Below are positions 25,009 to 41,907 of a stretch of DNA of 64,000 nucleotides, one piece after another. The notes beneath the pieces were generated by a model, which saw nothing but the letters and a program-made list of their open reading frames with translations, had not been told where the DNA came from and searched no databases. The position numbers and the translations under genes were made by a program. The stretch is taken from assembly GCA_047638695.1 (NCBI GenBank), contig JBLINY010000009.1, positions 9,234 through 73,233 on the forward strand, written 5' to 3'. How positions within the stretch are numbered: the first letter of the stretch is position 1; each line of letters starts with the position of its first letter. Source of the stretch: Acidimicrobiales bacterium. GTDB taxonomy: Bacteria > Actinomycetota > Acidimicrobiia > Acidimicrobiales > SZUA-35.

Positions 25009-25042
25009 ATGGGAAGCTCTGTCGTATTAGCGAGCCGAGGGG

Positions 25043-26038
25043 TCAACCAGAGGACAGTGCCTTCCACAAAGAGCGATAGTTCCGGTAGGTGTACTCATTG
25101 GACACCCAACCCGAACGTACCAACTCCTTGTGGAGCAGCGGGAGATTCCAGCAACTCACGCCCATATCGACGTGATGAGCAAGGTGGTAGCCGATGTTGT
25201 GCGGCGCCAGCCAGAAGCTGGCTAACCAAGTCTGGCGCACGTCATGGGTGGTCTGTCGTCGATCGGCCGATTGCATCAGGCCGCCGTGTTCGGCTACGGC
25301 CCGCAGCCGATTGATGACGCGCCAGATTGTTTGATGGGGGAGCCACCACAGGAAGAAGTAGAGCTCGGGACGGCCGACGATCGTGAAGGCGGCGATAATG
25401 GGAATCTGGCAGGCCAGAATTCTCACTGCCGTCGGCTTGCGTTTTCGGGCCGCTTTTACCAGACCGACGAAGAGCTTCCAGCCCGTGCGCCCCGTGGCAT
25501 CCCGCAGCAGTTTGCGTCGGAAGCTGGCCCGGCTCACCGGATAGTTGGCGTAGAGGGCCACGTCGGGTTCCTTCGGGCCCATCTCGTCGCGGTGATGGTT
25601 GATATGGGCCCGGCGATACAGCTCGAACGGCACCCATGAGGGGTAGGACAGAATCCAACGCCCTACCCAGTCGTTGAGGCCGTTGTTGTTGAACAGGGTG
25701 CGATGCACGGCTTCGTGCCCCAGGCTGGCGAAACGGGCATACGCCCGACCCATCAGAAGGAACGCCGCCACCCACGCGACGGGATGCGACAACCAGATGG
25801 CAGCCGCCACGACGGCGACTGGTTCGAGGACGACGAGTGCGAGTGTTATTGCACTCTTCCACTGAGGAATCGTGCGAAGGTTGGCGCGTAACTCGGGCAC
25901 GGCCTTACCGCCAGCAAGCAGACGGTCGGTCGGCAACACATCGGGGAGGGCAGCGGGGGCAGCCACCATGCCTCCGAGGCGAGGCCCTGTGGCTCTGATG
26001 CTGGAGTTGTGATCTTCGGTTGAACTCGTCACGACCAC
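25043..26038 (-). CDS. Membrane fatty-acid desaturase family protein
   Basis: 331-aa ORF with three His boxes (HEAVH, HINHH, HNIGYHLAHH) and TM segments. GTG start; the true start is uncertain. Confidence 0.85.
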   Translation of the reverse strand: MVVTSSTEDHNSSIRATGPRLGGMVAAPAALPDVLPTDRLLAGGKAVPELRANLRTIPQWKSAITLALVVLEPVAVVAAAIWLSHPVAWVAAFLLMGRAYARFASLGHEAVHRTLFNNNGLNDWVGRWILSYPSWVPFELYRRAHINHHRDEMGPKEPDVALYANYPVSRASFRRKLLRDATGRTGWKLFVGLVKAARKRKPTAVRILACQIPIIAAFTIVGRPELYFFLWWLPHQTIWRVINRLRAVAEHGGLMQSADRRQTTHDVRQTWLASFWLAPHNIGYHLAHHVDMGVSCWNLPLLHKELVRSGWVSNEYTYRNYRSLWKALSSG

Positions 26039-26105
26039 ACCTTACACTCTGAGATCGCATGATTCAATTCTGTGATGTCGGTGACGGCAGGGAGCCCCGA
26101 CCCGC

Positions 26106-26918
26106 ATGAGGCTGACCCGGCACGATCAAGATCTCGGATTGAGGCCGCTGACTGCTCGGTCGCTTGTGGTCAGCATGTTGCTTGGAACACACCCGCCTCG
26201 CCTCCCGGCCCATGCCCTCGTGTCTTCGGCCGCGCTCTTCGGTATCAGCGAGGGAGCATGTCGCACCGCACTCAGTCGACTGGTGGCGAGCGGCGAGATT
26301 ACGAACGACGATGGCTGGTACGCCCTCGGGGCCGATCTCATCAATCGGCAGCGGAGCCAGGATGTCGGACGCGCGACCAGGCCGACACCGTGGGACGGCA
26401 GGTGGCGCACCCTGATAGTTACGGCCGAGCGTCGTTCGGCCACCGACAGAACCGACGCCCGAAGTCGGCTGCGTTCAGCTCGCTTCGCCGAGCTTCGCGA
26501 AGGCATCTGGACCCGTCCCAACAATTTGCCAGAAAGCCCGGTCGTTGCAGATCTCGCTGGCCGAGGCTGGCTGGCCGCCGAGGTCACGTTCGATGACGGG
26601 CTCGACCCAGAAGACTTGTGGCCATTGGCCCGGTGGCGACACACGGCGATCGGGCTGCACACGCTGATCGAGCAGCTGACACCTCGGCTGGAGCAAGACG
26701 ATCCGTCAGATTTGGCCAAAGGCTTCCTGGTCGCCGCAGCCGGTCTACGGCAGTTCAAAAGCGATCCGTTGCTGCCCGATGAGGTGCTGCCGGCAACATG
26801 GCCGGGGGCTGAGTTCCGTGAGGCCTATGACCGATTCGACCAGAGTTACCGCCGGGTCCTCCGCCAGTTCTTGCAGGAGGCGAAGGGTCAGACTGACGCT
26901 GGCCAGACTTGCGGATAG
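26106..26918 (+). CDS. PaaX-family transcriptional repressor
   Basis: 270-aa ORF. N-terminal winged-helix region (TARSLVVSMLLG...ALFGISEGACRTALSRLVASGEI) and PaaX C-domain pattern (WDGRWRTLIV...GIWTRPNN). Divergent from the desaturase gene. Confidence 0.75.
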   Translation: MRLTRHDQDLGLRPLTARSLVVSMLLGTHPPRLPAHALVSSAALFGISEGACRTALSRLVASGEITNDDGWYALGADLINRQRSQDVGRATRPTPWDGRWRTLIVTAERRSATDRTDARSRLRSARFAELREGIWTRPNNLPESPVVADLAGRGWLAAEVTFDDGLDPEDLWPLARWRHTAIGLHTLIEQLTPRLEQDDPSDLAKGFLVAAAGLRQFKSDPLLPDEVLPATWPGAEFREAYDRFDQSYRRVLRQFLQEAKGQTDAGQTCG

Positions 26919-27688
26919 TGCGGACCCGTGAACGGCTGTCCCTCGACCTGACCGTCATGAACGAAGCCAGACGCCATCCCTTCCTCCCATAGGTAGGTGG
27001 CGTCGTCGCCGATGTAGCGAACGGTGTATCCACGCCGCTGACGGTCAGCGCGTGTGTTCGGCCCTGCGTAATGAACGGTCATGGCGTGGAAGGCAATGAC
27101 ATCCCCAGGCTGCATATCCCAGGAGAGGATGGCGTGCTGATCTCGCTCTTGTTCGTAGTCAGGGATTTCTTCGTAATTCGGGTTTCGGGTGTACGACGTA
27201 CCGCCCGGAGCGAATGGTTCTGGTTGGAACCACCGATCCCACTTGTGCGATCCGGCGATGAACTCGAGGCCCCCGCTGTCGAGCGTGACCTCATCGAGGG
27301 CGAGCCAGAACGACAGGACCTGACGACCACGAACCGGCCAGTATGGCTGGTCGTTGTGCCAGCGCGTCGGGGCATCGGTGGCTGAGTCCTTGACGAACAG
27401 TTGGTCATAGAGGAGGCGGACAGACTTGGCGCCCATGAGCTCTGCAGCGAGCCCGGGAAGGGGAGAATCCAAACAATAGGCGGCGAAGTCAGGGTCGTTC
27501 TCCCAAACCCGAATATTCCCATGGAACCTGCCCCCCGACTCGATCTCGTAGCCGTGAAAGAACGGGCCGGGGTTGGCGATATCGCGGTCGATGGCAGCGG
27601 CCAGTTTATTGACCCAAGCGCCATCGACGACCCGGGGTATCAGGACAGCCCCGTCGCGTTCAAAAGCTTCGATATCGGCTTGCAGCAT
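26888..27688 (-). CDS. Phytanoyl-CoA dioxygenase (PhyH) family 2OG/Fe(II) oxygenase
   Basis: 266-aa ORF. HxD (RWHNDQPYW), distal His (AFHAMTVHYAGPN), Arg (RRGYTVRY). 31-nt convergent overlap with the PaaX gene. Confidence 0.8.
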   Translation of the reverse strand: MLQADIEAFERDGAVLIPRVVDGAWVNKLAAAIDRDIANPGPFFHGYEIESGGRFHGNIRVWENDPDFAAYCLDSPLPGLAAELMGAKSVRLLYDQLFVKDSATDAPTRWHNDQPYWPVRGRQVLSFWLALDEVTLDSGGLEFIAGSHKWDRWFQPEPFAPGGTSYTRNPNYEEIPDYEQERDQHAILSWDMQPGDVIAFHAMTVHYAGPNTRADRQRRGYTVRYIGDDATYLWEEGMASGFVHDGQVEGQPFTGPHYPQVWPASV

Positions 27689-27714
27689 GCAAACGAACGT
27701 AGCGGTTCAACCCA

Positions 27715-30099
27715 TCATCGGTGTGCGTCCCCGGTCCAGGGATCCTCGCCCAGATAGCGGTCGAAGGCCCTCAACGGGTGCCGCTCGGGATCGAGCCGCG
27801 TCGCTGTGTCCCATGGTTCGAACGCATTGGTCACGTTGGCCAATCCGGTTTCGGCCAGTTCCGGGTAGTGGCGAAGAAGCACACTCTTCAGGTTGTTCTG
27901 GTCGATCCAGTCCATTCCCTCGGCCGAGTACACCTCTTCCCGATAGTCGGTGGTGTAAAAGCGGTCGGCCTGAAGGCGGCGACTGGCATTGAGAATGAAG
28001 ATCTGGAAGAGGGTTTCACCGAATCCGAAGCCCGTGGGTCGATTGCAGTCGGATTCGGCCAGGGTCCCAACCAACAGATCGAGACTCTCGACGTCATCGC
28101 CATAGATGTCGGTGATCTTCTTCACCACAGCTTTGTCGGTGGTGAGGTCGTCGAAGCTGTGCAGCGGATTCAAGCCAAGCTGACGCCGGAACTCGTTGTA
28201 TCTGGGCACACCGCGCTCACGGGCCCGCAGGATGTCCACCGTCCCCATGTCGTGCACGGGATTCCCCGGGATGCTGAGCTCCTGCATGAACCGGGGGTAA
28301 TTGTTCAGCGTGAGGGCGCCCGGGTGCTGGACACCGAATGAGTAGAAGAGGTCGGGCATGCCGAGACGTTGGGTGATCTTGTGCGATGCCGCTTGTCGAC
28401 TGGCAGCGAACGGCACTTCTGCTACCAGGTCATCCGTGGCGTGACGCCTCAGCTTGAGCGACTCTGGCAGCAACGAGTGAAGGCGGTAGACCTCGACAAA
28501 CTCCTCGCTAAGAGCAAAGGGCGAGCCGTGCTTTTCTATCTGATTGCCAACAAGGCCACCAAGCTCCGGGTTCGGGACATTGAAGCGGGCGACCGTCTTG
28601 CGGTCCTTGGCTGCCCTGAATCGATACGTCAGTAGCCCGTACCAGTTCGTGTTGAGTCCGCTGTCGAGCGCCCGGTTAGGGAGGATGGCCGGCGTCCACT
28701 CGACCGAGTGGATCTTGGCCGTGACCGCAGCGTTTACCAGCCGGGCGACGTTGAAGAGCCGATCGTCGTCCCAGGTGGGGTGATGCGCTTGTAGGTGATC
28801 ACATATGGCGTTGTGTTCGAGCGTGAACAACGTGTGCCACATGGCCAGCCCCACCCACCAGTTCCGCACCATGCCTGTCTTCTCGACCCCGTCCTTGCCG
28901 ACAGGCAGCGTGCCATCCGGCTCGACGCGTAGCTTGCCGTTGAGCCCTGTCCGCAGTTCGTCCTGCGTCGCTTTATCGCTGCCATAGACCTGCGAGGCAT
29001 CCCACCAATGCGTGACCTCGTTGATGAATGTCACGGGTGCGGTGTCGGCCGCCTGCCCGTGGGTGGGATCGGGCTGGGTTCGGCTGACGAACATGTTCTG
29101 CTGCCGGTAGCGATCGCGAGCCGGGTCGTTCTCGGGAAGCGGTATTTCGATCGGTCGAAGTCGATCCCAGGTCATGTTCTCGCCATGGGTGATCCAATCG
29201 TGGTTCTGGAACTGAATCCAGGAGGCCGCCAGCAGATTGAGAAATGGCACCTCTTCCATCTCGCCCTCGCGACGGAGCAGCTCGAGACTGATTCGTCGAG
29301 GATTGGGGGTGAGCAGCTGATCACCGGTTTCGGGCTTTGTGACTGCTTCGGCCACGTTTCGGCTGAACCGGGTTCCGGCCGCGCCCTCTTTCGGGTCCTC
29401 CAGGTTGTTCCAGCTGCCATCAGCCGTGCGGTAATGACTGACGCCAGGTGGTGGCTCCAGACCAGACTGCTGGAATCCCACAAGCTGGTCCTTTGGATAC
29501 GTCGACTTGAGATTCCGTCGATTCAGCTTCTCGCGCATGTACGCCAGCGTGAGAATGCCGGTGTACAGCCGCTTGCGATACCAGTTGGTCCAGATCTTGT
29601 CGCGGTAGTTCTTGCCCAGTTTCTGCGTAAGCGGCTCGATGATGCGGCATCCAGCGAGGCCGATGCCATGGCCGATCTGATAGCGCAGAGTGGCGCCTAG
29701 TTGTGGACGACGTCGGGGGTTTGGGGCAATCGGCAATTGCGGACTCGGTGGGGGAGCAAGCAGCTCGTCACCATCGAAGTAGCGGATACCTGGAACGAAG
29801 ACATCGACACCCGATTCGTCGTTGTTCCGCGCTAGCTGCACCATGTGCATCCAGTCAGCGCGGTTAGCGGGCGTGATTTCAGACAGGTCGCACGCCCACG
29901 CGTAGTGAGCCGCGGCCTCGCTGTAGTTCCCGAGATGAAAATGGGCGAGGCCCAAGAGCGCCCGGCTGGCCCCTGTCGGGTCACAAACTGCAGCGGTGGC
30001 CAAGCGATCGGCTGCTTCGTCGAAGCGGCGCGCTTCTAAGAGATCGATCGCCTTGTCACGTTCTTGCGCCCACCCCTGTGGTTTGGCTTCGTTCGTCAT
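27715..30099 (-). CDS. Heme peroxidase-cyclooxygenase superfamily enzyme, fatty-acid alpha-dioxygenase (PIOX)-like, with an N-terminal TPR-like extension
   Basis: 794-aa ORF. YRTADGSWNNLEDPKEGAAGTRFSRN. Distal-His motif ASWIQFQNHDWITH (H300). WHTLFTLEHNAICD. Catalytic-Tyr/proximal-His motif SEEFVEVYRLHSLLPE (Y538, H541). These are collinear with plant alpha-DOX and COX motifs as I recall them. Residues ~20-70 look TPR-like (ALLGLAHFHLGNYSEAAAHYAWA). Confidence 0.85.
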   Translation of the reverse strand: MTNEAKPQGWAQERDKAIDLLEARRFDEAADRLATAAVCDPTGASRALLGLAHFHLGNYSEAAAHYAWACDLSEITPANRADWMHMVQLARNNDESGVDVFVPGIRYFDGDELLAPPPSPQLPIAPNPRRRPQLGATLRYQIGHGIGLAGCRIIEPLTQKLGKNYRDKIWTNWYRKRLYTGILTLAYMREKLNRRNLKSTYPKDQLVGFQQSGLEPPPGVSHYRTADGSWNNLEDPKEGAAGTRFSRNVAEAVTKPETGDQLLTPNPRRISLELLRREGEMEEVPFLNLLAASWIQFQNHDWITHGENMTWDRLRPIEIPLPENDPARDRYRQQNMFVSRTQPDPTHGQAADTAPVTFINEVTHWWDASQVYGSDKATQDELRTGLNGKLRVEPDGTLPVGKDGVEKTGMVRNWWVGLAMWHTLFTLEHNAICDHLQAHHPTWDDDRLFNVARLVNAAVTAKIHSVEWTPAILPNRALDSGLNTNWYGLLTYRFRAAKDRKTVARFNVPNPELGGLVGNQIEKHGSPFALSEEFVEVYRLHSLLPESLKLRRHATDDLVAEVPFAASRQAASHKITQRLGMPDLFYSFGVQHPGALTLNNYPRFMQELSIPGNPVHDMGTVDILRARERGVPRYNEFRRQLGLNPLHSFDDLTTDKAVVKKITDIYGDDVESLDLLVGTLAESDCNRPTGFGFGETLFQIFILNASRRLQADRFYTTDYREEVYSAEGMDWIDQNNLKSVLLRHYPELAETGLANVTNAFEPWDTATRLDPERHPLRAFDRYLGEDPWTGDAHR

Positions 30100-30162
30100 T
30101 TTCCCCCCAAAACTTCGGCCCTGCCCGAGGCCGGTTGCCGCCCTGACCTGGCCGGACCCTAG

Positions 30163-30184
30163 CGTTCCTCACGTTCCGCGTTCC
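30163..30184. promoter_or_regulatory. Three direct CGTTCC hexamers in the divergent promoter region between the alpha-DOX-like and lipoxygenase-like genes (candidate operator)
   Basis: CGTTCC at 30163, 30172 and 30179, within the 203-nt intergenic region 30100-30302. No functional evidence. Confidence 0.2.
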
Positions 30185-30302
30185 ATGCCAGGTCATAGAT
30201 GGCGCAGGTAGTGGGGCCCGCGTCCCACTCGTCTGATTTCGCCATCTGGTCTAGGTTTGCGCTGGGCGGAGGACGAGGTGGACCAGTCGGGAGGGACGAC
30301 CG

Positions 30303-31913
30303 GTGGGGAAATGGAATGCAAGCTCGGTCAAGGCCGGGATCCAGCGACGACGGTTCCTAGCGAGCTGGGTTCTAAGGCGAGCGTTCTGGAACCGATTGGC
30401 CACGTTGAAGTTCGGCGGCCAGAAGGCAACGGTCATTCCCGAGCCGTCCAGCGATGGGCGGTGGGTCAAACTCATGCCGCTTGGCCAAAAGTATCCAGAA
30501 CTCACGGTCGGAGGCGTGGTGGTTGCCGACCACGTTCCTCGGGATGAGGCTGAACCGCTCAAGCAGAAGGTCACCCGCCTGCAAGCTGTTGGTGTTCGTC
30601 GAGTTTCCCCAATGCAGCCCGGGCTACCATCGGTGCCGCCCGATGCCGACAAGGCCTTGTCGTGGGCATTCACCGGCCGTCACGCTGGCCTGTATCCGCG
30701 TCCCCAGCGGCCGGCTGACCTCGGGCTGGGTGTCGGCTCCGACGGCCTTGCTCGCCAGGTCAACAACCGCGAGGGAACGCTGGGCGCGCTGGCCGTGGCA
30801 AGCCCGTATGCCGCATACCTGAGGGCTGCTGGCCCCGGCCGATTCGAGTGGAATCTCGCTGAGCTCGGCGCGTATGAGTGTCACGACGGGCTTGTGAAGT
30901 TGGGAGCCAAGGTCGACTTCGTACTCGATCCACAGACAGGATGGCTACGCGCCGGCCACATCGAGACGGCGCTGGGATCGGTCCGCCCCGGTGATTCGGG
31001 GTGGGCGAGTGGCACACGGCTCGCAGTCTGCTCGATCACCACTCATGCGTCGCTGGTGCGGCACTTCAATTGGTTACACCTCACGAGTGGGGCTCCGCTC
31101 GAAGCCATCACCCGCAACCGACTTCCTCACAGACATCCGGTTCGTCGGTTGCTTTGGCCGCACGTCTTTGGAACTCATGCAAACAACGACCTTGTGACAC
31201 AACTTCAGATGGCGAAGGGCGGAGAGTTCGAATCGATCTTCAGTTTCACTCACGACGCCCTGCTTCAGCTGTTCGAGGACACCACGGACCAGTTTCAGTT
31301 GGCCGCTATCAATCCGGCCCTAGATGCCGAGCAGCGCGGCGTTGACCTGCCCGAGCTGGTGGCGCCAGCGCAGGAGAATCGGTGCAGCCTCCTCGACGTC
31401 TTCGAGCGTCATGCCCAGCGGTACCTGGCCCTGTACTTCAACTCCGATGAAGAAGTCGCAGGTGATCCGGACATCGCAGGATGGCTCGCCGACCTCGATG
31501 CCCAATTGCCAGGTGGAGTCAGCAAAATCACGGGCAAACCTCCGACGCTTCGAGGATTGGCCTCACTGGCGGCAACCCTCATCTACTTGGCGACGGTCGA
31601 ACATGAGATTACGGGTTCGGGACTCTGGGACTATCAGCTGTGGAACGACACGTCGCCTGTTCGGGTTTATGAGGACGGCCGAAATGTCCCTCTCGATGTC
31701 TACCAGAGATTGATTAATGCTGATTTCAACCTCAACGTCAGTCGAACACCGCTGCTGGCCGATTTCTCTTACCTCGCGCTCGACGCCCGCGGTGAGCAAG
31801 CGTTCAAGCAGTTCACCCGGGACCTCGAACGACTGCAGCGATTTATGGATCTGGGCGACGCTGCCCCGTGGCGCATGGAACCGAAGCGGCTGAAAGCCAA
31901 CATCAACGCCTGA
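30303..31913 (+). CDS. Lipoxygenase homologue lacking a PLAT domain (mini-LOX-like) with a non-canonical ligand set
   Basis: 536-aa ORF (GTG start). HASLVRHFNWLH (H254, H259) matches LOX HxxxxH. LPHRHPVRRLLWPHVFGTHANNDL...GGEFESIF matches LP..HP....PH..T..IN. ATVEHEITGSGLWDY (H434) matches QHA.VN/HxGQ..Y. The C-terminus PWRMEP....KANINA matches PY.YL.P....NS.xI. The position of the 4th ligand is Gly438, and the C-terminal residue is Ala rather than Ile/Val. Confidence 0.7.
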   Translation: MGKWNASSVKAGIQRRRFLASWVLRRAFWNRLATLKFGGQKATVIPEPSSDGRWVKLMPLGQKYPELTVGGVVVADHVPRDEAEPLKQKVTRLQAVGVRRVSPMQPGLPSVPPDADKALSWAFTGRHAGLYPRPQRPADLGLGVGSDGLARQVNNREGTLGALAVASPYAAYLRAAGPGRFEWNLAELGAYECHDGLVKLGAKVDFVLDPQTGWLRAGHIETALGSVRPGDSGWASGTRLAVCSITTHASLVRHFNWLHLTSGAPLEAITRNRLPHRHPVRRLLWPHVFGTHANNDLVTQLQMAKGGEFESIFSFTHDALLQLFEDTTDQFQLAAINPALDAEQRGVDLPELVAPAQENRCSLLDVFERHAQRYLALYFNSDEEVAGDPDIAGWLADLDAQLPGGVSKITGKPPTLRGLASLAATLIYLATVEHEITGSGLWDYQLWNDTSPVRVYEDGRNVPLDVYQRLINADFNLNVSRTPLLADFSYLALDARGEQAFKQFTRDLERLQRFMDLGDAAPWRMEPKRLKANINA

Positions 31914-31916
31914 GGA

Positions 31917-33389
31917 TCAACTGCTGAGCTCCCCAAGGTGACGCAGTGCGGCCACCGATGGGCAGAACAGATACGCCGCACCAACGGTCTGGATGAAACG
32001 AGGGAACCCCGAGAGCACGACCGGGGGTTGACCGTTCCCGACCGGGATCACGAATCGACTGGTCGATGGACGGTTTGCTCCCAAGATTGGATCATTCGTT
32101 CCCGTGATAGAGGGATCTAACAAGCCGAGGTTGATCCAGTCGTACATGACCGCCTCGAATTGGGCGATGATGCTGGCGCACAGAAAGCTGCCCAGTAGCC
32201 CCCTGGGCTGACCATCGTCGGGTTCGCCGGGGTTCATCGGAGGCCCGTACGGCACACCCCGGCGAACCATCGGACGCGTGTAGTTGGCGCTTCGCTGGGC
32301 GATGCGGGCGCTTCGCGGATTCGCTCGGCGTATGTGCGAGCCGACAGGACAAAATAGACCTTCGAAATCATCAAGCTCGACAGCTTCGTTCGGATAGTCG
32401 AAGAAGTTGATGGTTTCCTCGTCGACCCTGGGCATGCGGATGTCCTTGAAATCTCGGGACTCAAGCAACGAGGGGGTCAGGGGAGCCCCGTTGCGCCAAC
32501 GGCCCATGAGTTTCGCTGCGACAAGTTCGCGGTCCCAACCTGTTTGGGCTGCGCTGTCGTCGAGGAAGGTCTCAAAGCTGTGCACATCTTGCTCGAGCAC
32601 GCGAAAAGCATTGAAGCAACCGTTCAAGCCGTAAGGGTCAGCGAGCTTGCGCCAAGTCACATTCGGGAACGTGGTCTTGTAGTCGGGGCCAAGCAGGACT
32701 GCTCCGACCGGGGCTAACGGCTGTGCGTCCGCTTTGCCGATGGGTTCACCGTTCACGACAAATCGAGGCTGGGCGATGCTGTCTCGATAGCCGAAATGGA
32801 CCTTGTCGCCCAGGCCATCGGGCTCGCCTCGTTCGAAGCCATCACGCTCGAGGTCGTCTGGCAGGAACGCGCCATCGAGCTTGGCCGTCACGGTGAAGGC
32901 CCCCGACCGACGCCACGCCAGCTCGAGCTCGGCGTCGACGGCGTCGCGCTCGTCGGCGGTTTCCCCGTGAATGGTCCACATGAGGTGGACCTTCTCGGGG
33001 TCATCCATCCCGTAACGCCACCGGTGTGGCGCACTCTCATCAACGTCACCGACCTTGGGCCCTCGGGCAGTAGCCCCGGCTCGAAACTCCGATGGGAATG
33101 AGTTGAGGGCGCTGGCGCTCACCCCCAGAGCCGAGAGCCCCGAGGCGGTTATGGCGACATTGAGACATGTCGCCGGTTTGCTTGTCCACCACTCGGCCGT
33201 GGTGATCGAGAGTCGGGGTGGGGCCGCGTCTGCTGGCCGGCCGGGGTTTGAAAGGAGAGGCACGACGGCAGCGAGGAACTTTCGAGCGGCTGTCCGATCG
33301 GCGACGCGAACCACGACGTGACGAACGAACTTCAGGTGGTAGCCCCGCAAAATATTGCCTTGAACATCGCTGAGGTCGACGTGGGTCAT
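31917..33389 (-). CDS. DyP-type heme peroxidase (long form)
   Basis: ORF 31917..33404. The likely start is ATG 33389, 4 nt after the stop of the upstream ORF. N-terminal LSDVQGNILRGY, FGYRDSIAQP (GxxDG-like), proximal-His motif VGSHIRRANPR. Confidence 0.85.
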   Translation of the reverse strand: MTHVDLSDVQGNILRGYHLKFVRHVVVRVADRTAARKFLAAVVPLLSNPGRPADAAPPRLSITTAEWWTSKPATCLNVAITASGLSALGVSASALNSFPSEFRAGATARGPKVGDVDESAPHRWRYGMDDPEKVHLMWTIHGETADERDAVDAELELAWRRSGAFTVTAKLDGAFLPDDLERDGFERGEPDGLGDKVHFGYRDSIAQPRFVVNGEPIGKADAQPLAPVGAVLLGPDYKTTFPNVTWRKLADPYGLNGCFNAFRVLEQDVHSFETFLDDSAAQTGWDRELVAAKLMGRWRNGAPLTPSLLESRDFKDIRMPRVDEETINFFDYPNEAVELDDFEGLFCPVGSHIRRANPRSARIAQRSANYTRPMVRRGVPYGPPMNPGEPDDGQPRGLLGSFLCASIIAQFEAVMYDWINLGLLDPSITGTNDPILGANRPSTSRFVIPVGNGQPPVVLSGFPRFIQTVGAAYLFCPSVAALRHLGELSS

Positions 33390-33393
33390 AGCG

Positions 33394-34035
33394 TCACCAT
33401 CCAATCTTCAATGCGTCGCGGATCTGGGCCGCCGAGAAGCCCGGATAGGCCCGGTAGACAAAAACCTGGGCGTTAGGTTCGGCGTCCAAGACGAGCGCCA
33501 GGTTGCGGGGCAGTTTCAGCGGATCGTCGCTCAGTTCGGTGACCTGCTCCGGAAGCTGAAACGCATCGTGCTCGATGACCCACTCGATGAAGGCATCGGG
33601 GTGAGACTCGACCGGTAAGGGCGGCGGATTGGCCACAAACTCAAGGAGGGCATCGAACGCTCCACCAATGTTGTAGATGAAGTCTCTGATGTAGTTGGAG
33701 AAATCGCCGTCGTAGATGCTGAACATGCAAAGACTTCCGTCGACGATGATGAAGCGTCCGAAGTGAACAATGCCGGTATTGTTGAGGCCGGAGTGCACCT
33801 CTTCGATCGCCGGGGCCAAAGCCCCCACGAGCCGCGCACGGGCAATGGGCGACGGATCAGCTAGCGGCATCACCAGGTTCATGGCTGTCTGTACGTTGTC
33901 CGACGGGTTCATCGAGAACGGGTGTTTCGGAAGAACGGGTGGTGGGTCGCGCCAACGCCAAAAGGCGAGAAGTTTGCTTTCGAGCAGACGCTTGACCTTT
34001 GTCAGCGGCCGCCTGGAATATCCGTCTTGTGCCAC
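33394..34035 (-). CDS. Hypothetical protein translationally coupled to the DyP gene
   Basis: 213-aa ORF (GTG 34035; alternative ATG 33912). No recognisable catalytic motif. Conserved-looking core NTGIVHFGRFIIVDGSLCMFSIYDGDFSNYIRDFIYNIGGAFDALLEFV. Its stop (33394-33396) is 4 nt from the DyP ATG. Confidence 0.6.
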   Translation of the reverse strand: MAQDGYSRRPLTKVKRLLESKLLAFWRWRDPPPVLPKHPFSMNPSDNVQTAMNLVMPLADPSPIARARLVGALAPAIEEVHSGLNNTGIVHFGRFIIVDGSLCMFSIYDGDFSNYIRDFIYNIGGAFDALLEFVANPPPLPVESHPDAFIEWVIEHDAFQLPEQVTELSDDPLKLPRNLALVLDAEPNAQVFVYRAYPGFSAAQIRDALKIGW

Positions 34036-34131
34036 TGTTCCCCCCAGTTGACGCTACGGGATACTAACGCGAAGTAGCGACGCGACTCCATTGCCACAGC
34101 GGCTCGATCGATTCGTTGACTAACATTTGGC

Positions 34132-35358
34132 ATGGACGAGTTCACGGCCAAGCTGATCGAGGGTATGCACGCCGACTTCGCGCCGGGGCGAGGCGAGCCC
34201 GAACTCGGCCTCGACCGTGGCCACCAACCGGGGACTCGTCCGATCCACAGTTCAGGCATCAGCGCGGTGGGTTGGTTTCGTGGGACGCATGCGGCGGCGC
34301 GCTACTGCACAGCTCCCCAGTTTGGGCGATCGTGGACACCCGTGACGGTTAGGTTCTCGAACGGCAACGGTGCCCCCGACCCTGATGGCGTGCGCCAAGT
34401 CCGAGGTATGGCCGTGAAGTTTCATCTTGGGGAGACGACGTGTGACGGCGAGGGCCCACACACCACGGCCCACACGACGTGCGGGGTTTTGAAGTCTCCC
34501 GCAGAGTCCGATCTCGTCTGCATGTCGGTTCCCATGTTCATGGTCAAGGAGGCCGAGGGCCTGCTCGACTTCGAGAAGGCCTATCTTCCTCGGGCCGTGC
34601 GTCGACCGGGTCTGACGAAACGGCTCAAAGCGATGGCCAGCCTCATACCTTTGCCTACGACCGATCCGGGCACCCTGAAGTCCGGAAACAACGGCCTCAT
34701 CGCCTACGCCCAACGGACGCCGGAGGCGCGCGCTTTCATCGCTGCCAACGCCATGTTAGGGCCGCCAGACAGTTACGGACGCACTGCCTACCACGCCGTG
34801 CACGCGTTCGAACTGGAGGGAGAGTGCCCTGATGGACTGCATCAGCACGGCGAGATCTGCCCGGGCCGGCAGCGCCACATGGGTCGATTCTCTCTGGAGC
34901 CGGGCGATGGAGTTCGGCTCGAGTATCAGGACGGCGACAGACCGGCGGATGGTCAACGGCCGTTAGCGACCCTAGAAGATCTGGAAGCTGACTATCTGAA
35001 ACGCGAGCTCGAGCGACGACTCGATCGATTCGTCAGTGTCTTCAACCTACGAATGCAGCTGGCCGACCCCTGGGACGACACCTCGGACCCGACAACTGTG
35101 TGGCCGATGACTCGCAAGCGGGTGCTGATGGGATCACTGGTACTCCATCACATTCCTTCCGATCAAGATGCCGGGTGCGAGAAACTGAGCTTCAACCCGG
35201 GTCAGCTAGCGCCAGGCATGGGGCTGTCGGATGATCCCGTGCTTCGAGCCCGAGTTGCGGTCTACGAACAATCCCAGGCCCATCGAGAGGCACAGACCTG
35301 CCCGTTTGCCCATCGAGCTACTGGTTCGGCTCCGTTAGAGCGCTCCGCACCTGTTTGA
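34132..35358 (+). CDS. Catalase-related hemoprotein (mini-catalase; srpA / allene-oxide-synthase size class)
   Basis: 408-aa ORF. Distal-His region RPIHSSGISAVGWF. TPVTVRFSNGNG....RGMAVKF (catalase core pattern). Proximal-Tyr motif RARVAVYEQSQAHR. It is much shorter than typical ~480-750-aa catalases. Confidence 0.8.
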   Translation: MDEFTAKLIEGMHADFAPGRGEPELGLDRGHQPGTRPIHSSGISAVGWFRGTHAAARYCTAPQFGRSWTPVTVRFSNGNGAPDPDGVRQVRGMAVKFHLGETTCDGEGPHTTAHTTCGVLKSPAESDLVCMSVPMFMVKEAEGLLDFEKAYLPRAVRRPGLTKRLKAMASLIPLPTTDPGTLKSGNNGLIAYAQRTPEARAFIAANAMLGPPDSYGRTAYHAVHAFELEGECPDGLHQHGEICPGRQRHMGRFSLEPGDGVRLEYQDGDRPADGQRPLATLEDLEADYLKRELERRLDRFVSVFNLRMQLADPWDDTSDPTTVWPMTRKRVLMGSLVLHHIPSDQDAGCEKLSFNPGQLAPGMGLSDDPVLRARVAVYEQSQAHREAQTCPFAHRATGSAPLERSAPV

Positions 35359-37984
35359 TCTGGCGTCTCGCAAATTGCATAGCCTCGTTGAAATCCATTG
35401 CTTCGCCCGTTGCGATGTTGGCGTCCAAGACATCGTCGCCCAGTGTCTCGCGGAGTTGCTCGAGGATCTCGGGCATCACGGTGACCAGGCTGACGCTCTG
35501 CCGGGTACTACTGCCGTAAATCATTGCGGCTATCTCGGGACGATCGAGGCGTTTGAAGAAGACTGCCAAGTCGGCCAAGGTTGTCGCCACACTGCCGTGG
35601 TTGCCAGCGCGGTGCAACGATTCGATGGCGCTATCGAAAAGGTCAAGGGCACCGATCCGATCGCCCGCTGATTCTTCGAGACCGGCGATCTCGCGGGCGA
35701 GGATGGCTTCGAAGTACTCCAGCCGCTGCCGACGCGAGTAGTCGAGGTTTTCGAGCAGAATAGTGAGCGCTCGAGCGGGATCAGACTCCGAGATCGAGCG
35801 GGCGGAACTTGTGAGCGTGTAGGCGATCCAAAAGGGATTCTGTCGGGCCCGCGCCGCGTCGATTGCTTCCTCTGCGAACTCCTGCGCCTCGACGGCGCGC
35901 CCAATTCCGGGGAGCACGGACATACGGCCGGCCAGGCCAATGAGGTTCGCCAACGGACCCTGCCCGACGAGTGCATCGCAGATCTCGAGCCAACGGTCGA
36001 TATCGCCGTTGTAACGATGGCCAATTGCCTCCCAGAAGGCGGCCCAGCCGTGCTCGTGAGGATCGGCTCCCTGGAGTTGTTCGAGTTCTCGGGCACGCGC
36101 TCCGTATGCAATCGCCTGTTGTGGTCGGCCCGTGATCCCACAGATGCTGGCCGCGGTGTAGAGGCGCGCCAGTTGTGGGATGGCTGCTGCTTCGGCTGAC
36201 GCGAGTGTCTCCTCGGCCCAGCCCACCGGCTCGAATCGTTGGAGGACGAAGGTGAGCATGGCCGTATGGGAGGCGATCGTTGCCGCTTGCTCGATGTCAT
36301 TGCGGCTGGTCGCCCATCGGAAGGCTCTGCGCAGGTTCGAGAACTCGCTGTCAACCCAATCGAGGGTCCGCCGCTGCGCCGGCCCGTCCCAAACCGTCCA
36401 TTGTTCGAGCACTGCATCAGCGAAGAAGGCGGCATGCTGATCTCGCGCTTGACCATCAAGGTCACTTTCGGCGAGTTGGTCGGCCGCATACTGCCGGATC
36501 GTCTCCAATAGGCCAAAACGGACCTGCTTGCCCGACCGTTCGGTTGTAAGCAACGACTTCCGTACGAGCGAATCCAAGATGTCCAGAACCGAGTATTCAT
36601 CCTGTCCGGCACCGCAAACTCGGTGGGCGGCCTCCAATGCGAAGCCATCGGCGAATACCGAGCAGCGGTTGAGGAGGTCGCGCTCGGCATCCTCGAGCAG
36701 ATCGTAGGACCACTGAACCACACCCAACAGCGTCTGGTGGTGTTCGAGAACACGATCGGAAGCTGACAGAAATCGAAAGCGGTCGTCCAGTCGATCTCGT
36801 ACGTCTGTGGGGCTCATGGAGACCATCCGGGCGGCCGCAAGTTCGATGGCCAGAGCGATGCCATCGAGTCGTTCACAAATTTCCTCTACCGCTCGTTGGT
36901 CATCGCTGCTGTCCAGAACGAAATCAGCGTCGAGTGCCCGGGCCCTATCAACGAAAAGCCGCACAGCAGGGGAATCGGGTCCGACCGCGACGTCCAGAGC
37001 CGGCACCGGATAGAGCTGTTCCCCTGAAACTCGTAGCCCTTCGCGTGAGGTGGCAATGATGGTGACGGATTCGGATGCGCTGAGAAATTGCTCGATGAGT
37101 TCGGCGACGGCGTCGAGAAGGTGCTCGCAGTTGTCGAGCACGAGGAGAAGATCTCGGCCAACAAGTGAGCTCGCAATTCCTTCGGCGACCGAGACGCCCG
37201 CTGATGGTGTTATTCCGAGTGTCGTTGCTATCGCATCGGCGACTCTGTCCGGCTCGAGAACCGGTGCGAGCTCAACCAGCCAGACACCATCACCGAACTC
37301 GGCAACTCTGCTGGCGGCGAGTTCGAGCGCCAACCGGGTTTTGCCGATCCCACCAAAGCCAGTGAGGGTGATGAGTCGTCGGCGGGCGACCAGTTCGCTT
37401 AGCTCGGCCAGTTCGCGGTCACGCCCGACGAACGTGTCCTTGGTCCGAGGCAGGTTGCCAGTCGGCCGTTCGGCGGTTTTGAGTGGAGCAAACTCGGTGG
37501 CTAGTCCGTCCGCTGCCACCTGGAGGATCCCAATGTGTTCGGCGACATCGCGCAGCAAATGCTCGCCCAGGTCGATCAATTCGAAGCCCTGAAGCAGTTG
37601 TGCCGTCGCCCTTGTCACCAGGATCTGGCCGCCGTGCCCCGCTCCCATCACACGTGCGACTCGGTTCACTGTTGGTCCGAAGAAGTCACCGCTTCGGGCT
37701 TCGGCCTCGCCAGTGTTCAATCCCATTCGAACGGGTAGCCCAAGCAGACGTTGAGCGTCGATCGCGGCCTCGACGGCTTGGTTGGCTGAGGTGAACGAGG
37801 CGGCCATCCCATCGCCGGTGTGTTTGAAGGCCCGACCACCACGGTTTTCTATGGCCTCGATGAGTACGGCGTCGTGGGCGGCTAGGGCCTCACGCATCCC
37901 CTCGGCATCGTCCTCCCAGCGGCGGGTCGATCCCTCGATATCGGTGAAGAGAAACGTCAGCGTTCCCTCTGAGTGGACTGACAT
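35318..37984 (-). CDS. Class III adenylate/guanylate cyclase domain fused to a STAND (NB-ARC-like) ATPase and TPR-like C-terminal region
   Basis: 888-aa ORF. Cyclase motifs FLFTDIEGST, KHTGDGMAASF, GLNTGEA, GPTVNRVARV. P-loop LTGFGGIGKTRLA. Walker B LLVLDNCEH. Long helical-repeat C-terminus with no LuxR HTH seen. Its 3' end overlaps the catalase-like ORF by 41 nt (convergent). Confidence 0.85.
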   Translation of the reverse strand: MSVHSEGTLTFLFTDIEGSTRRWEDDAEGMREALAAHDAVLIEAIENRGGRAFKHTGDGMAASFTSANQAVEAAIDAQRLLGLPVRMGLNTGEAEARSGDFFGPTVNRVARVMGAGHGGQILVTRATAQLLQGFELIDLGEHLLRDVAEHIGILQVAADGLATEFAPLKTAERPTGNLPRTKDTFVGRDRELAELSELVARRRLITLTGFGGIGKTRLALELAASRVAEFGDGVWLVELAPVLEPDRVADAIATTLGITPSAGVSVAEGIASSLVGRDLLLVLDNCEHLLDAVAELIEQFLSASESVTIIATSREGLRVSGEQLYPVPALDVAVGPDSPAVRLFVDRARALDADFVLDSSDDQRAVEEICERLDGIALAIELAAARMVSMSPTDVRDRLDDRFRFLSASDRVLEHHQTLLGVVQWSYDLLEDAERDLLNRCSVFADGFALEAAHRVCGAGQDEYSVLDILDSLVRKSLLTTERSGKQVRFGLLETIRQYAADQLAESDLDGQARDQHAAFFADAVLEQWTVWDGPAQRRTLDWVDSEFSNLRRAFRWATSRNDIEQAATIASHTAMLTFVLQRFEPVGWAEETLASAEAAAIPQLARLYTAASICGITGRPQQAIAYGARARELEQLQGADPHEHGWAAFWEAIGHRYNGDIDRWLEICDALVGQGPLANLIGLAGRMSVLPGIGRAVEAQEFAEEAIDAARARQNPFWIAYTLTSSARSISESDPARALTILLENLDYSRRQRLEYFEAILAREIAGLEESAGDRIGALDLFDSAIESLHRAGNHGSVATTLADLAVFFKRLDRPEIAAMIYGSSTRQSVSLVTVMPEILEQLRETLGDDVLDANIATGEAMDFNEAMQFARRQIKQVRSALTEPNQ

Positions 37985-38172
37985 AGCGCCAGGTTCGCAC
38001 AGGTCGGCGACGTTCCCCGCAACGGGTTAACGGGACATCGATGCTGTTGTTTGGCCACGGGTTGGACAGCGAACAGGCGGACCGTAGCCGCATGCCGCGG
38101 ATCCGAGAACTTCTTTTTGTGGTGTTGGTTGCCACGGCCAGGAGGTGCGGGGTCGCTGTACTGGACGCTGAT

Positions 38173-38204
38173 GCGTTCGTGCGTTCGTGCGTTCGGGCGT
38201 CTTG
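38173..38204. repeat. 8-bp tandem repeat x3-4 (GCGTTCGT) in a 244-nt divergent intergenic region
   Basis: GCGTTCGT at 38173 and 38181, GCGTTCGG at 38189, GCGTCTTG at 38197. Lies 25 nt upstream of the CoA-transferase ATG 38229. Confidence 0.85.
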
Positions 38205-38228
38205 CCACCGCCGACTACGGTCGGTCGG

Positions 38229-40986: not shown

Positions 40987-41907
40987 GTGATGGCCGATTT
41001 GGACAACGAACTACCAGAAGCCTTCGCGACGCAACCCATCCAGTACCTCAGCCGTACACGAGCGTGGTATTCGGCCTTGGGGTACGAGCCGTATCGCTGG
41101 CCGCACAACGATGAGGTTCCGTTCGCCCCACTCGACAAGCCGCTGTCGGAGTGTCGCCTCGGGCTCGTCACCACTGCCGCGCCGCATCAACCGGACAAGG
41201 GTGATCAGGGTCCCGGAGCTGCCTATAACGGCAGCGCCAAGTTCTTTGACGTCTACTCATCTGAGGTCGCCGATCCTCTTGACGTCCGGATCTCACACAT
41301 CGGCTACGACCGCAACCATTCCAAGGCCGACGATCCCAACACATGGCTGCCGCTGCCTCGTCTGCACGAAGCAGTAGCGGCGGGCCGAATTGGTTCGCTG
41401 ACCGAACGTTTCTATGGGGCCCCGACCGTTCGACGGGTTCGCAGCACCACCGAGGAGCACGCTCCACGGATCGTCGAGATGTTGCAGGAGGATGGCGCTG
41501 ACATTGCCCTGCTCGTTCCCACTTGACCCGTTTGCCATCAGACGGTCAGTTTGACCGCTCACGCCATCGAGTCAGCCGGCATCCCCACCGTTGTAATGGG
41601 AGCAGCAAAGGACATTGTCGAGCACGTTAGCGTTGCCCGGTTCGCCTTCAGCGACGTGCCGCTTGGCAACTCGGCCGGGCTGCCTCACGATGTGGATTCG
41701 CAGCGTGAGGTACTCGATTGCGCCCTCACCCTGTTCGAGAAGGCGTTTGCACCGCGAACCACGGTGCAAACCCCGGCTCGCTGGAACGGCGGGGATCACA
41801 CCTGGAAGCACGACATGATGAATCGTGAACAGCTCGATCCGGAGGCAGTGGCCAAGGCCAAGGCTGAGTTCGAGCGCCAGAAGGAGTTGGCCAACCTCAA
41901 CCGGTAG
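40987..41907 (+). CDS. GrdB/PrdB-family (glycine/sarcosine/betaine/D-proline reductase component-B-like) protein with an in-frame TGA at 41524-41526, putative selenocysteine
   Basis: ORFs 40987..41526 and 41551..41907 share one frame and are separated only by the TGA. Read-through gives ...ADIALLVPT-U-PVCHQTVSLTAHAIESAGIPTVVMG (U-x-x-C). The second half has no ATG/GTG start or SD. A hairpin lies 16 nt downstream of the TGA. Confidence 0.65.
41543..41557 (+). promoter_or_regulatory. Candidate bacterial SECIS-type hairpin CGGUCA-GUU-UGACCG
   Basis: Perfect 6-bp stem with a 3-nt loop that begins with G. It starts 16 nt after the UGA. An alternative hairpin, UGACCCGU/ACGGUCA (41524-41548), includes the UGA itself. 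Confidence 0.4.

Follow-up and report, generated by a model that had tools for sequence, protein, structure and literature searches.

The 10.3-kb six-gene cluster between positions 27715 and 37984 of the window (the whole 64,000-nucleotide stretch of DNA analysed) consists of two oxygenase modules, each conserved separately, and fatty acids and their peroxides are, as judged from sequence, the probable substrates of both. In the reading that we favour, with a probability of about 0.55, the two modules are joined, and the production of fatty-acid hydroperoxides by Module A is coupled to hydroperoxide processing by Module B. The desaturase, PaaX and PhyH genes beside them are lineage-specific local neighbours outside the conserved cluster. 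The features of the region are as follows.

25043-26038, minus strand: membrane di-iron enzyme of the FA_desaturase family (Pfam E 2.5e-30)
26106-26918, plus strand: PaaX-like repressor, divergent from the desaturase (Pfam PaaX, PaaX_M, PaaX_C)
26888-27688, minus strand: PhyH-family Fe/2OG dioxygenase (Pfam E 2.6e-32)
27715-30099, minus strand: Module A gene 1, alpha-dioxygenase-type heme enzyme (AnPer; Pfam An_peroxidase E 5.7e-108)
30100-30302: divergent intergenic region of 203 bp between the dioxygenase and LOX-like genes, with the presumed promoters
30303-31913, plus strand: Module A gene 2, PLAT-less lipoxygenase-fold (LOX-like) protein (Pfam Lipoxygenase 23.3 bits; PDB; AF2)
31917-33404, minus strand: Module B DyP-type heme peroxidase, class C/D-like (DyP_N; TIGR01413 E 9.6e-15)
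33394-34035, minus strand: Module B unnamed protein of ~205 aa, unk213 (277 homologues)
34036-34131: divergent intergenic region of 96 bp that separates the catalase-related gene from the unk213-DyP operon
34132-35358, plus strand: Module B 408-aa catalase-related hemoprotein of the MAP_2744c type (Pfam Catalase E 3e-22)
35318-37984, minus strand: regulator with class III nucleotide cyclase, STAND NTPase, HTH_77 and TPR domains (Pfam; HTH_77 precomputed)

All nine ORFs of 25043-37984 were recovered at the coordinates of the initial annotation, and its family assignments were borne out by Pfam, NCBIfam and PDB searches, with AF2 and Foldseek for the LOX-like protein; the HMM placement of the latter was marginal, its score lying just below the Pfam Lipoxygenase cutoff of 23.6 bits. 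The GC content was 0.61-0.62 across the region, indicating that there is no compositional island. The flanks had been described as CoA-dependent catabolic genes but are mixed: besides a CoA-transferase III and an acyl-CoA dehydrogenase they hold a broken FAD hydroxylase, an ABC-2 transporter, and MFS, BVMO and AKR genes.

The An_peroxidase domain of the dioxygenase comprises residues 223-749, with a TPR extension (~200 aa) at the N-terminus. A PDB search revealed that its closest solved relatives are the rice and Arabidopsis alpha-dioxygenases (4kvj/4hhr; E 5e-111), with which it shares the distal His (QNHDW), the catalytic Tyr538, the proximal His541 and Arg707/708. When the window enzyme was compared with 68 homologues, Tyr was kept in 67/69, and His and Arg-Arg in 69/69. 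Because it has both the tyrosyl-radical machinery and the Arg-Arg carboxylate clamp, the dioxygenase most likely oxygenates a free fatty acid. A G-rich RBS-like sequence, GGGGGGAA, lies immediately 5' of its ATG, and no sigma-70 consensus was found in the 30100-30302 region.

The LOX-like protein matched many solved LOXs in a PDB sequence search (E ~5e-10), and its AF2 model (pLDDT 88) gave TM values of 0.68-0.72 to LOX catalytic domains in Foldseek. The PLAT domain is absent, and the family length is ~500 aa. H254, H259 and H434 are invariant (80/80), the fourth iron-ligand position is Gly438, and the C-terminus reads ...ANINA, in which NINA is conserved and the final residue is Ala in place of Ile. 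From its three His metal ligands and conserved C-terminus, the protein is most likely a non-heme metal enzyme. Gly438, the terminal Ala and the score below the Pfam cutoff are observations that speak against a lipid pathway.

The dioxygenase adjoins the LOX-like gene in 75 of 80 genome loci, which span Actinomycetota, Acidobacteriota, Myxococcota, Alpha-, Beta- and Gammaproteobacteria, Rokubacteria, Nitrospirota, Bacteroidota and Verrucomicrobiota. To our knowledge, most of these host phyla are not known for the polyunsaturated fatty acids needed by classical LOX chemistry. The pair was arranged as AnPer>LOX in 48 loci (gaps typically -4 to +30 nt), as LOX>AnPer in 13, divergently in 11 and convergently in 1. 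Two loci carry both as a single ORF, and the junction in L003 is in frame; each fusion reported here is known from one MAG. As a control, an An_peroxidase match was found in 0 of the 79 unk213 loci without a LOX-like gene. The pair occurs without DyP or catalase in ~66 loci. Patatin phospholipases are located near Module A in 11/80 loci and Crp-type cNMP regulators in 12. An AMP-binding ligase-like ORF, a further hint at lipids, occurs in 5 loci. The fatty-acid link suggested in the initial annotation is plausible because of the retained alpha-DOX residues (Tyr, proximal His and Arg-Arg) and the patatins that adjoin the pair. That patatin is present in just ~14% of Module A loci is a separate observation, against a lipid pathway.

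In Module B, the best PDB match of the DyP was 8re3 (E 1.5e-40), and Asp208, His357 and Arg381/382 are invariant among 45 homologues. Its proposed translational coupling to unk213 is consistent with the tight spacing of the two genes, which is an 11-nt overlap with the TTG start at 33404 or a 4-nt gap with the ATG of the gene caller. An RBS-like GGGGGGAA is found upstream of the unk213 GTG at 34035. No family or sequence match was obtained for unk213 in Pfam, NCBIfam or PDB. Its AF2 model (pLDDT 86) shows a ferredoxin-like alpha+beta core preceded by a helix at the N-terminus, with weak fold matches only, to dimeric alpha+beta barrel, ABM and MupZ proteins. In other bacteria, this core domain is fused to catalase (P0243), DyP (P0246) and P450 plus DyP (P0313, P0334), and the fused P450s resemble ordinary bacterial class I P450s of the MycG type.

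The best PDB match of the catalase-related protein was 3e4w, the 33-kDa MAP_2744c of M. avium paratuberculosis (E 1e-23). MAP_2744c is reported to be a peroxidase. The two proteins (3e4w/3e4y for MAP_2744c) share the R-x-x-H distal and R-x-x-x-Y proximal motifs, and in both the distal His is preceded by a hydrophobic residue, whereas the window protein has 408 aa and contains insertions. Arg36, His39, Arg91, Arg374 and Tyr378 are invariant among 45 homologues. An analogy to allene oxide synthase (AOS) had been drawn, but the signature residues of that enzyme, Thr-His and Asn (PMC5617202), are replaced by Ile-His and missing, respectively, and the usual partners of the gene are DyP and unk213, not LOX; the analogy is not supported. 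The lack of the Thr-His/Asn of relatives that convert fatty-acid hydroperoxides is also an observation against a lipid pathway. Among 84 unk213 loci, the catalase-related gene was present in 76 and DyP in 74, with the absences at contig ends, and ~79 loci carry catalase-unk213-DyP without LOX or AnPer. A phospholipase-C-family::catalase fusion was detected in 8 Module B loci, and a patatin phospholipase adjoins a Leptothrix variant of the module. No description of Module A, or of Module B as a genomic triad of catalase-related gene, unk213 and DyP, was found in the searchable literature.

The regulator showed Guanylate_cyc, AAA/STAND and TPR domains in Pfam, and its sequence contains the cyclase motifs FTDIEGST, GDGM and VNRVAR. 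Full-length orthologues are present in syntenic loci, and cyclase/STAND proteins neighbour the LOX-like gene in ~30 of 80 loci and unk213 in 36 of 84, in agreement with its earlier description as an associated gene. In L084 and L167, the cyclase type is replaced by SARP (Trans_reg_C/BTAD)-STAND regulators, which are of the SARP type at the N-terminus. Secondary-metabolite clusters, too, typically contain SARP-type variants and ABM-like folds such as that of unk213, which speaks against a lipid pathway.

Both modules occur together in ~13 loci, in at least four arrangements and only in an Acidimicrobiia-like clade. L090 and L091 contain a co-directional unk213-DyP-LOX-AnPer run, and in L008 the DyP and the LOX-like protein form one ORF, an apparent fusion. 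In by far the most genomes the two modules are not found together, so their coupling may be a peculiarity of a single clade.

In the sequence of steps that we infer, the most likely reaction of the dioxygenase is hydrogen abstraction from a free fatty acid followed by O2 addition, which yields a hydroperoxide. The LOX-like protein would act on the same lipids, either oxygenating them or rearranging the hydroperoxide made by the dioxygenase. Organic or lipid hydroperoxides are the most likely substrates of Module B, which would consume or convert them, with unk213 as its putative alpha+beta accessory protein. The cyclase-STAND-HTH regulator would control expression and may emit cAMP, and the two modules would have merged into one locus in the Acidimicrobiia-like lineage.

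The initial annotation had instead proposed a single nine-gene pathway leading from the desaturase through LOX, alpha-DOX and PhyH to the mini-catalase, as an AOS analogue, and DyP, with PaaX and the cyclase-STAND protein as regulators. Every family was confirmed, and the PhyH gene, which follows the dioxygenase gene in the same orientation after a gap of 26 nt, may be co-transcribed with it in this genome only. However, among 164 related loci the desaturase and PaaX were found in none and PhyH gave two weak distal matches, and PhyH orthologues (70% and 63% identity) reside in unrelated gene contexts. The desaturase has three His boxes (HEAVH, HINHH, HLAHH), but its top NCBIfam match and closest named relative is the arginine hydroxylase GntB, far under the cutoff, and the AOS hallmarks are missing. 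The neighbourhood analysis largely ruled out this pathway, which we consider highly unlikely; the locus is two modules that are usually found apart. Chance juxtaposition of unrelated oxidative genes over the full 13 kb, which holds for the leftmost three genes and accords with the uniform composition, is extremely improbable and was ruled out for 27715-37984 by the linkage (75/80 and 74-76/84), the synteny kept in several arrangements and the fusions. Non-random clustering and neighbourhood conservation thus hold for the six genes from the dioxygenase to the regulator and fail for the desaturase, PaaX and PhyH.

A role in peroxide or lipid-peroxide defence appears rather unlikely. Module B would then be induced by stress to scavenge peroxides, either H2O2 or organic hydroperoxides, with a STAND protein as sensor and regulator, and Module A would be adjacent for shared regulation rather than for biosynthesis. 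The occurrence of Module B without Module A in ~79/84 loci, the catalase-like Val/Ile-His and the resemblance to MAP_2744c fit this role, as does the fact that DyPs are peroxidases, but the distal Asn for catalase-type H2O2 dismutation is missing. Moreover, the three genes, which include one for an accessory domain, are strictly linked, and P450 fusions occur; both features point to a specific substrate more than to bulk detoxification. A metabolic link is favoured by the fusion of DyP with the LOX-like protein and by the operon in which the genes run co-directionally with those of Module A. It also seems unlikely that the oxygenases tailor an aromatic, polyketide or peptide product under a SARP/STAND regulator. 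The SARP-STAND replacements, the weak similarity of unk213 to polyketide-tailoring ABM/MupZ proteins and the MycG-like P450s point in this direction, whereas no scaffold genes, PKS and NRPS included, were noted in the recurrent-neighbour listing of the 164 loci, the dioxygenase keeps its fatty-acid alpha-DOX residues, and the patatin and phospholipase-C-family links point to lipids.

Several known systems resemble parts of this cluster. CalDOX and LepDOX are cyanobacterial fatty-acid alpha-dioxygenases, and homologues with a partly conserved distal His have been noted in Actinobacteria, Proteobacteria, Acidobacteria and Bacteroidetes (PMC8720084), in agreement with our residue survey. The window dioxygenase differs in its TPR extension and LOX-like neighbour; such a neighbour is unmentioned in PMC8720084, where 'lipoxygenase' occurs 0 times in the text. 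The Pseudomonas aeruginosa oleate diol synthase operon (PMC5155153, PMC6377657) is likewise a bacterial fatty-acid-oxygenating operon, with oxylipin-dependent signalling as its output, but its enzymes are unrelated (di-heme cytochrome c peroxidase family) and its regulator is different. Fungal DOX-CYP fusions of linoleate dioxygenase and P450 (PMC13049297) couple a heme dioxygenase to a second, hydroperoxide-transforming enzyme, the role proposed here for a LOX-fold protein instead of a P450. In the catalase-related::LOX fusions of coral (AOS-LOX and HPL-LOX; PMC5617202) and the cyanobacterium Acaryochloris (PMC11719350), as in the present loci, natural fusion is evidence of a genetic link between a LOX fold and a heme enzyme that processes hydroperoxides. 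Here, however, the fusion partners are the alpha-DOX-type dioxygenase (L003) and DyP (L008) rather than catalase, and the LOX-like protein is 12-18% identical to solved LOXs with Gly at the fourth ligand position. As far as it is described in PMC13049297 (citing Brash et al. 2014), the linoleate 10S-dioxygenase of Nostoc punctiforme works with a separately encoded catalase-related 10S-hydroperoxide lyase. This bacterial pair, like the window, combines a heme dioxygenase of the COX/alpha-DOX superfamily with a catalase-related hemoprotein, whereas the window dioxygenase has a LOX-fold protein as its constant partner, and the catalase-related protein, without Thr-His/Asn and in a host that is not a cyanobacterium, is part of another unit, the triad that it forms with DyP and unk213.

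The region 27715-37984 is the junction of two modules, each of which is conserved alone. Module A comprises a heme dioxygenase of the alpha-dioxygenase (alpha-DOX) type and a lipoxygenase (LOX)-like protein, and Module B comprises a catalase-related hemoprotein, an unnamed alpha+beta protein called unk213 here, and a DyP peroxidase. Gene calls were made from an ORF listing with translation and families were assigned by Pfam and NCBIfam scans, which gave the following features.

25043-26038, minus strand: FA_desaturase (Pfam/NCBIfam), three His boxes visible
26106-26918, plus strand: PaaX, all three domains (Pfam/NCBIfam)
26888-27688, minus strand: PhyH (Pfam/NCBIfam)
27715-30099, minus strand: An_peroxidase with N-terminal TPR (Pfam/NCBIfam), the dioxygenase of Module A
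30303-31913, plus strand: LOX-like protein, marginal Lipoxygenase match (PF00305, 23.3 bits against a gathering cutoff of 23.6)
31917-33404, minus strand: DyP (Pfam/NCBIfam)
33394-34035, minus strand: unk213, no family match in Pfam/NCBIfam
34132-35358, plus strand: Catalase (Pfam/NCBIfam), the catalase-related protein
35318-37984, minus strand: Guanylate_cyc, STAND NTPase and TPR (Pfam/NCBIfam), with HTH_77 from precomputed matches

The initial annotation had read these nine genes as one lipid/peroxide pathway. It had read the sequence correctly: all nine ORFs lay where it had placed them, and the families it named were confirmed by the HMM searches, with only the Lipoxygenase match marginal. 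The GC content was 61-63% across the window and the composition was unbroken at 25043-37984. The contig originated from an uncultured organism; the closest LOX-like homologue showed 58% identity, and the nearest relatives were MAGs of Acidimicrobiia/Ilumatobacteraceae.

The best 80 genome loci around LOX-like homologues (L numbers denote loci fetched around LOX-like or unk213 homologues) were taken with flanks of 10 kb, or as far as the contigs reached, and searched with all proteins of the window. An_peroxidase was matched in 75 of the 80 loci, cyclase/STAND in 30, DyP in 9, unk213 in 8 and the catalase-related protein in 7; PhyH gave two matches, both weak and distal, and neither the desaturase nor PaaX was matched (0/80 each). 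The 79 unk213 loci that lack a LOX-like gene gave no An_peroxidase match and provide a built-in control for the 75/80. The two genes of Module A adjoined each other in Actinomycetota, Acidobacteriota, Myxococcota, three proteobacterial classes, Rokubacteria, Nitrospirota, Bacteroidota and Verrucomicrobiota. The dioxygenase gene preceded the LOX-like gene in 48 loci, with an ORF spacing typically of -4 to +30 nt; the reverse order was found in 13 loci, a divergent arrangement in 11, a convergent one in 1 and a single ORF in 2. In an Acidimicrobiia MAG (L003, 8111-11494), both proteins were encoded by one 1127-aa ORF; across the junction, the end of the dioxygenase continued in frame and stop-free into the start of the LOX-like protein. 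One and the same LOX-like family was paired with at least three dioxygenase subfamilies (about 800, 600 and 980 aa). Genes near the pair encoded patatin-like phospholipases (11 LOX-like loci), Crp-type cNMP-binding regulators (12) and ECF sigma factors (7). A conserved stretch of long ORFs on both strands, without Pfam match, was also observed directly downstream of the LOX-like gene in Burkholderiales loci (L046-L049, L055, L060, L070, L075 and L080), at about 11.4-13.4 kb of each.

The An_peroxidase domain (PF03098) of the dioxygenase was detected at E 5.7e-108 (362 bits against a cutoff of 25), and the rice and Arabidopsis alpha-DOX structures matched residues 195-765 at E 5e-111. The sequence EVYRLHSL was aligned with SVYRMHSL of the rice enzyme (Y-x-x-H, catalytic Tyr and proximal His), and the deposited 4kvl variant is changed at exactly the aligned catalytic Tyr. 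The distal His (QNHDW aligned with MVHDW) and an Arg-Arg pair (ASRRLQADRF aligned with ASRRLEADRF) were also found; in the rice structure work this pair reportedly binds the fatty-acid carboxylate. Across 68 related loci and the window, the proximal His and Arg-Arg were present in 69/69 sequences, the Tyr in 67/69 and the distal His, partly kept, in 42/69. Enzymes of the alpha-DOX class oxygenate fatty acids at C2, giving 2-hydroperoxides and Cn-1 aldehydes. The same residue pattern was described for bacterial alpha-DOX homologues by Kim et al. (PMC8720084).

Most homologues of the LOX-like protein carry a precomputed PF00305 match, and the protein itself matched about 50 solved lipoxygenases with E values down to 5e-10. 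Its AlphaFold (AF2) model (pLDDT 88.1) showed the helical fold of the LOX catalytic domain, and Foldseek aligned it with CspLOX2, 15-LOX-2, 5-LOX and 8R-LOX (E ~1e-15, TMq 0.68-0.72). The iron of LOXs is bound by two histidines of one helix (H-x4-H), a third His from a different helix, an Asn, His or Ser four residues past the third His, and the C-terminal carboxylate, usually of Ile. H254, H259 and H434 were aligned with the ligand histidines and were invariant in 80/80 homologues. The fourth side-chain ligand was absent, Gly438 being aligned with the Asn of CspLOX2 (75/80 Gly, 5 Asp), and the strongly conserved C-terminus (...ANINA) ends in Ala, not Ile. As judged from these alignments, the metal site is non-canonical. 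A PLAT/C2-like N-terminal domain was absent from the LOX-like protein and a long helix took its place in the model; cyanobacterial mini-LOXs likewise lack PLAT (PMC11719350). Both the LOX-like (30303-30420) and unk213 (33950-34035) families begin with a long predicted helix with a conserved W-x(1-2)-R-R, which may be a shared docking or membrane-binding element.

Module B was also found without Module A. Three unk213 homologues on long contigs showed the order catalase-unk213-DyP-STAND without LOX or An_peroxidase, and a metagenome scan added 80 unk213 loci, to a total of 84. The catalase-related gene was present in 76/84 and DyP in 74/84, the missing cases of both being at contig ends, and cyclase/STAND in 36/84. 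LOX-like genes were detected in 5/84 and An_peroxidase in 4/84; desaturase, PaaX and PhyH were each found in 0 of the 84.

By profile search, the unk213 core domain was found in 836 representative clusters, alone, in tandem or fused. The fusions (P numbers denote proteins with this domain) comprised catalase::unk213 (P0243), unk213::DyP (P0246), P450::unk213::DyP (P0313) and unk213::DyP::P450 (P0334). A CYP74-like identity of the fused P450s, which would have meant convergence on allene oxide synthase (AOS), was rejected, since the P450 domain of P0313 matched MycG and CYP125/124-type enzymes; the fused P450s resemble ordinary class I types. A Module B variant was found in the cultured Leptothrix discophora (L166, JAUZEE010000005.1, 30833-49646), where the genes encode, in this order, a Crp regulator, a cyclase-containing protein of 1473 aa, an unk213-domain protein of 937 aa, a DyP-like and a patatin-like protein. 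The 937-aa protein of this species (P0290) carries the unk213 domain C-terminally, had no match in Pfam or the PDB, and is called a cytochrome P450 by UniRef only. In L167, a triple fusion was followed by a SARP-STAND-HTH_77 regulator.

The DyP protein matched DyP_N, TIGR01413 and the structure 8re3 (E 1.5e-40), and its distal Asp (D208, GxxDG), proximal His (H357) and distal Arg (R381/382) were invariant in 45/45 homologues. The catalase-related protein was closest to MAP_2744c (3e4w, E 1e-23), with His39 (distal), Tyr378 (proximal heme ligand), Arg36 and Arg374 invariant in 45 sequences. The analogy of this mini-catalase to AOS was not supported. In coral cAOS, T66, H67 and N137 are named as catalytically important (PMC5617202); the Thr-His was absent, as the window protein has Ile38-His39 and the family V, I or L before the His, and so was the distal Asn, the position of the catalase GNN being occupied by C-M-S in the window protein and by A-M-T in its family. 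The steady neighbours of the family are unk213 and DyP (76/84 and 74/84), and LOX or An_peroxidase accompanied it in only 4-5 of the 84 loci.

No sequence match for unk213 was found in Pfam, NCBIfam or the PDB. Its model (pLDDT 86) consists of an N-terminal helix and a ferredoxin-like alpha+beta core, and the fold search showed weak likeness to generic dimeric alpha+beta barrel, ABM and MupZ proteins (best E 6e-3). Derivation from a diverged DyP or catalase half-domain was rejected by hhalign against both family alignments (probability <1%). In eight loci (L082, L085 and L116-L121), a PF04185 domain (phospholipase C/acid phosphatase family) was N-terminal to the catalase-related domain in proteins of ~805 aa encoded upstream of unk213-DyP.

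Both modules occurred together in about 13 loci, mostly of one Acidimicrobiia-like clade. Their arrangements, at least four, were that of the window, also as a mirror image (L001, L002, L010, L012, L087 and L088), co-directional unk213-DyP-LOX-An_peroxidase (L008, L090 and L091), that of L003, in which an AMP-ligase-like ORF separates the dioxygenase::LOX-like fusion from Module B, and the rearranged L015. In L008, an Actinomycetota MAG, DyP and the LOX-like protein lay in one frame with a linker of ~40 residues (6306-9743), so that a protein of each module appears to be fused; the L003 and L008 fusions each come from one MAG. The retention of both modules despite rearrangement, together with the fusions, suggests that they cooperate in this clade.

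The proposed nine-gene unit therefore stands in part: the genes at 27715-37984 recur in related genomes as two modules, but the desaturase and PaaX never recurred near either (80 and 84 loci) and are a divergent regulator-target pair. The best named relative of the desaturase in NCBIfam was an arginine hydroxylase, far under cutoff; the substrate of the desaturase is uncertain, down to its class. The PhyH gene follows the dioxygenase gene on the same strand after 26 nt and may thus be co-transcribed with it here. Its membership was nevertheless rejected, also as a hidden component, since its close orthologues (70% and 63% identity) lie amid unrelated genes. In the flanks, an FAD-dependent aromatic-ring hydroxylase was distributed over three consecutive ORFs (23432-25008, minus strand; FAD_binding_3 N-part, FAD_binding_3 C-part and Rng_hyd_C), representing either a pseudogene or assembly frameshifts. 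A 179-aa ORF (40987-41526, plus strand) matched only the C-terminal 40% (positions 206-347) of GRDB, the glycine/sarcosine/betaine reductase selenoprotein B, and may be truncated or preceded by an in-frame UGA. Upstream, 12689-17929 (Baeyer-Villiger-type flavin monooxygenase, aldo/keto reductase, acyl-CoA dehydrogenase and second CoA-transferase III) is a separate catalytic cluster without link to the island.

The regulator at 35318-37984 matched Guanylate_cyc (E 9e-9), AAA_22/AAA_16/nSTAND1 and, in precomputed matches, HTH_77. From the motifs FTDIEGST, GDGM and VNRVAR, it is predicted to keep the metal-binding Asp and transition-state Asn/Arg of the cyclase, alongside the NTPase and HTH. On the minus strand, an identical G-rich TGGGGGGAA immediately precedes the ATG of the dioxygenase gene (start at 30091-30099) and the GTG of unk213 (start at 34027-34035). 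This element is probably a ribosome-binding site and supports the longer 213-aa start of unk213. In a search for an operator common to both divergent intergenic regions (30100-30302 and 34036-34131) and to the sequence upstream of the regulator, this 9-mer was the only shared element. Within 24800-38400, no promoter consensus was found and terminator-like sites were at chance level; Rfam gave no match in the whole window at gathering thresholds. PADLOC returned no match for the six core proteins, indicating that the six-gene cluster is not a known defence system.

The observations to be explained are family membership, gene linkage and intact catalytic residues in four metalloenzymes, the LOX-like site being non-canonical. 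That the dioxygenase acts on free fatty acids is suggested by its alpha-DOX residues, by the links to patatin and to the phospholipase C family, and by the acyl-CoA-ligase-like neighbour; the LOX-fold protein would either oxygenate the same fatty-acid pool or isomerise the hydroperoxide of the dioxygenase. Module B may consume or transform organic hydroperoxides; that it is simply a peroxide defence is an unlikely explanation. The cyclase-STAND-HTH protein would be the pathway regulator, possibly passing a cAMP signal to Crp-type factors. The weak points of this scheme are the non-canonical LOX metal site, the absence of AOS hallmarks, the usual separation of the modules and the probable scarcity of PUFAs in the host bacteria. 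A non-lipid, natural-product role for the cluster appears more doubtful still.

We give a probability of roughly 0.2 to the most far-reaching reading, in which the dioxygenase and LOX-fold protein would form an obligate, occasionally fused two-enzyme machine making a new class of bacterial fatty-acid-derived mediator. The triad would be a dedicated hydroperoxide-processing arm in some lineages, with cyclase-STAND and Crp closing a lipid-to-cAMP signalling loop and the unk213 domain serving heme enzymes as a new accessory fold; prokaryotes would then have, spread by horizontal transfer, a counterpart of the oxylipin signalling of eukaryotes.

In summary, the finding is rated as two new architectures of oxylipin-type enzymes, both widely conserved, and a single new accessory domain. 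Through the operon of Module A, kept in at least 10 phyla, soil and freshwater bacteria would have a widespread route for oxygenating fatty acids, which could account for alpha-DOX homologues in non-photosynthetic bacteria. The Module B triad includes a new domain found in company with hemoproteins of the DyP, catalase-like and P450 kinds, and would place this DyP class and MAP_2744c-type proteins in a physiological context. Cultured strains are among the hosts (Sorangium cellulosum So0157-2, Archangium gephyra, Pseudonocardia acaciae, P. eucalypti, Geodermatophilus maliterrae and Mycolicibacterium stellerae, and, with the variant of Module B, Leptothrix discophora), and thus the hypothesis is directly testable. 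Since alpha-DOX and LOX enzymes are already in use for making aldehydes and hydroperoxides, the modules could also yield new biocatalysts.

To our knowledge, bacterial oxylipin cases are few, namely LoxA and the diol synthase of P. aeruginosa, the LOX/catalase and DOX/catalase pairs of cyanobacteria, and myxobacterial LOXs. No description of the alpha-DOX-type/LOX-like operon or the catalase-related/unk213/DyP triad was found in the open-access full-text literature, a scope that gives this absence limited weight. The components have precedents: alpha-DOXs have been characterised in cyanobacteria (PMC8720084), catalase-LOX fusions are known in corals and cyanobacteria (PMC5617202; PMC11719350), fungi have DOX-P450 fusions (PMC13049297), and a 10S-DOX is paired with a catalase-related lyase in Nostoc, as cited in PMC13049297.
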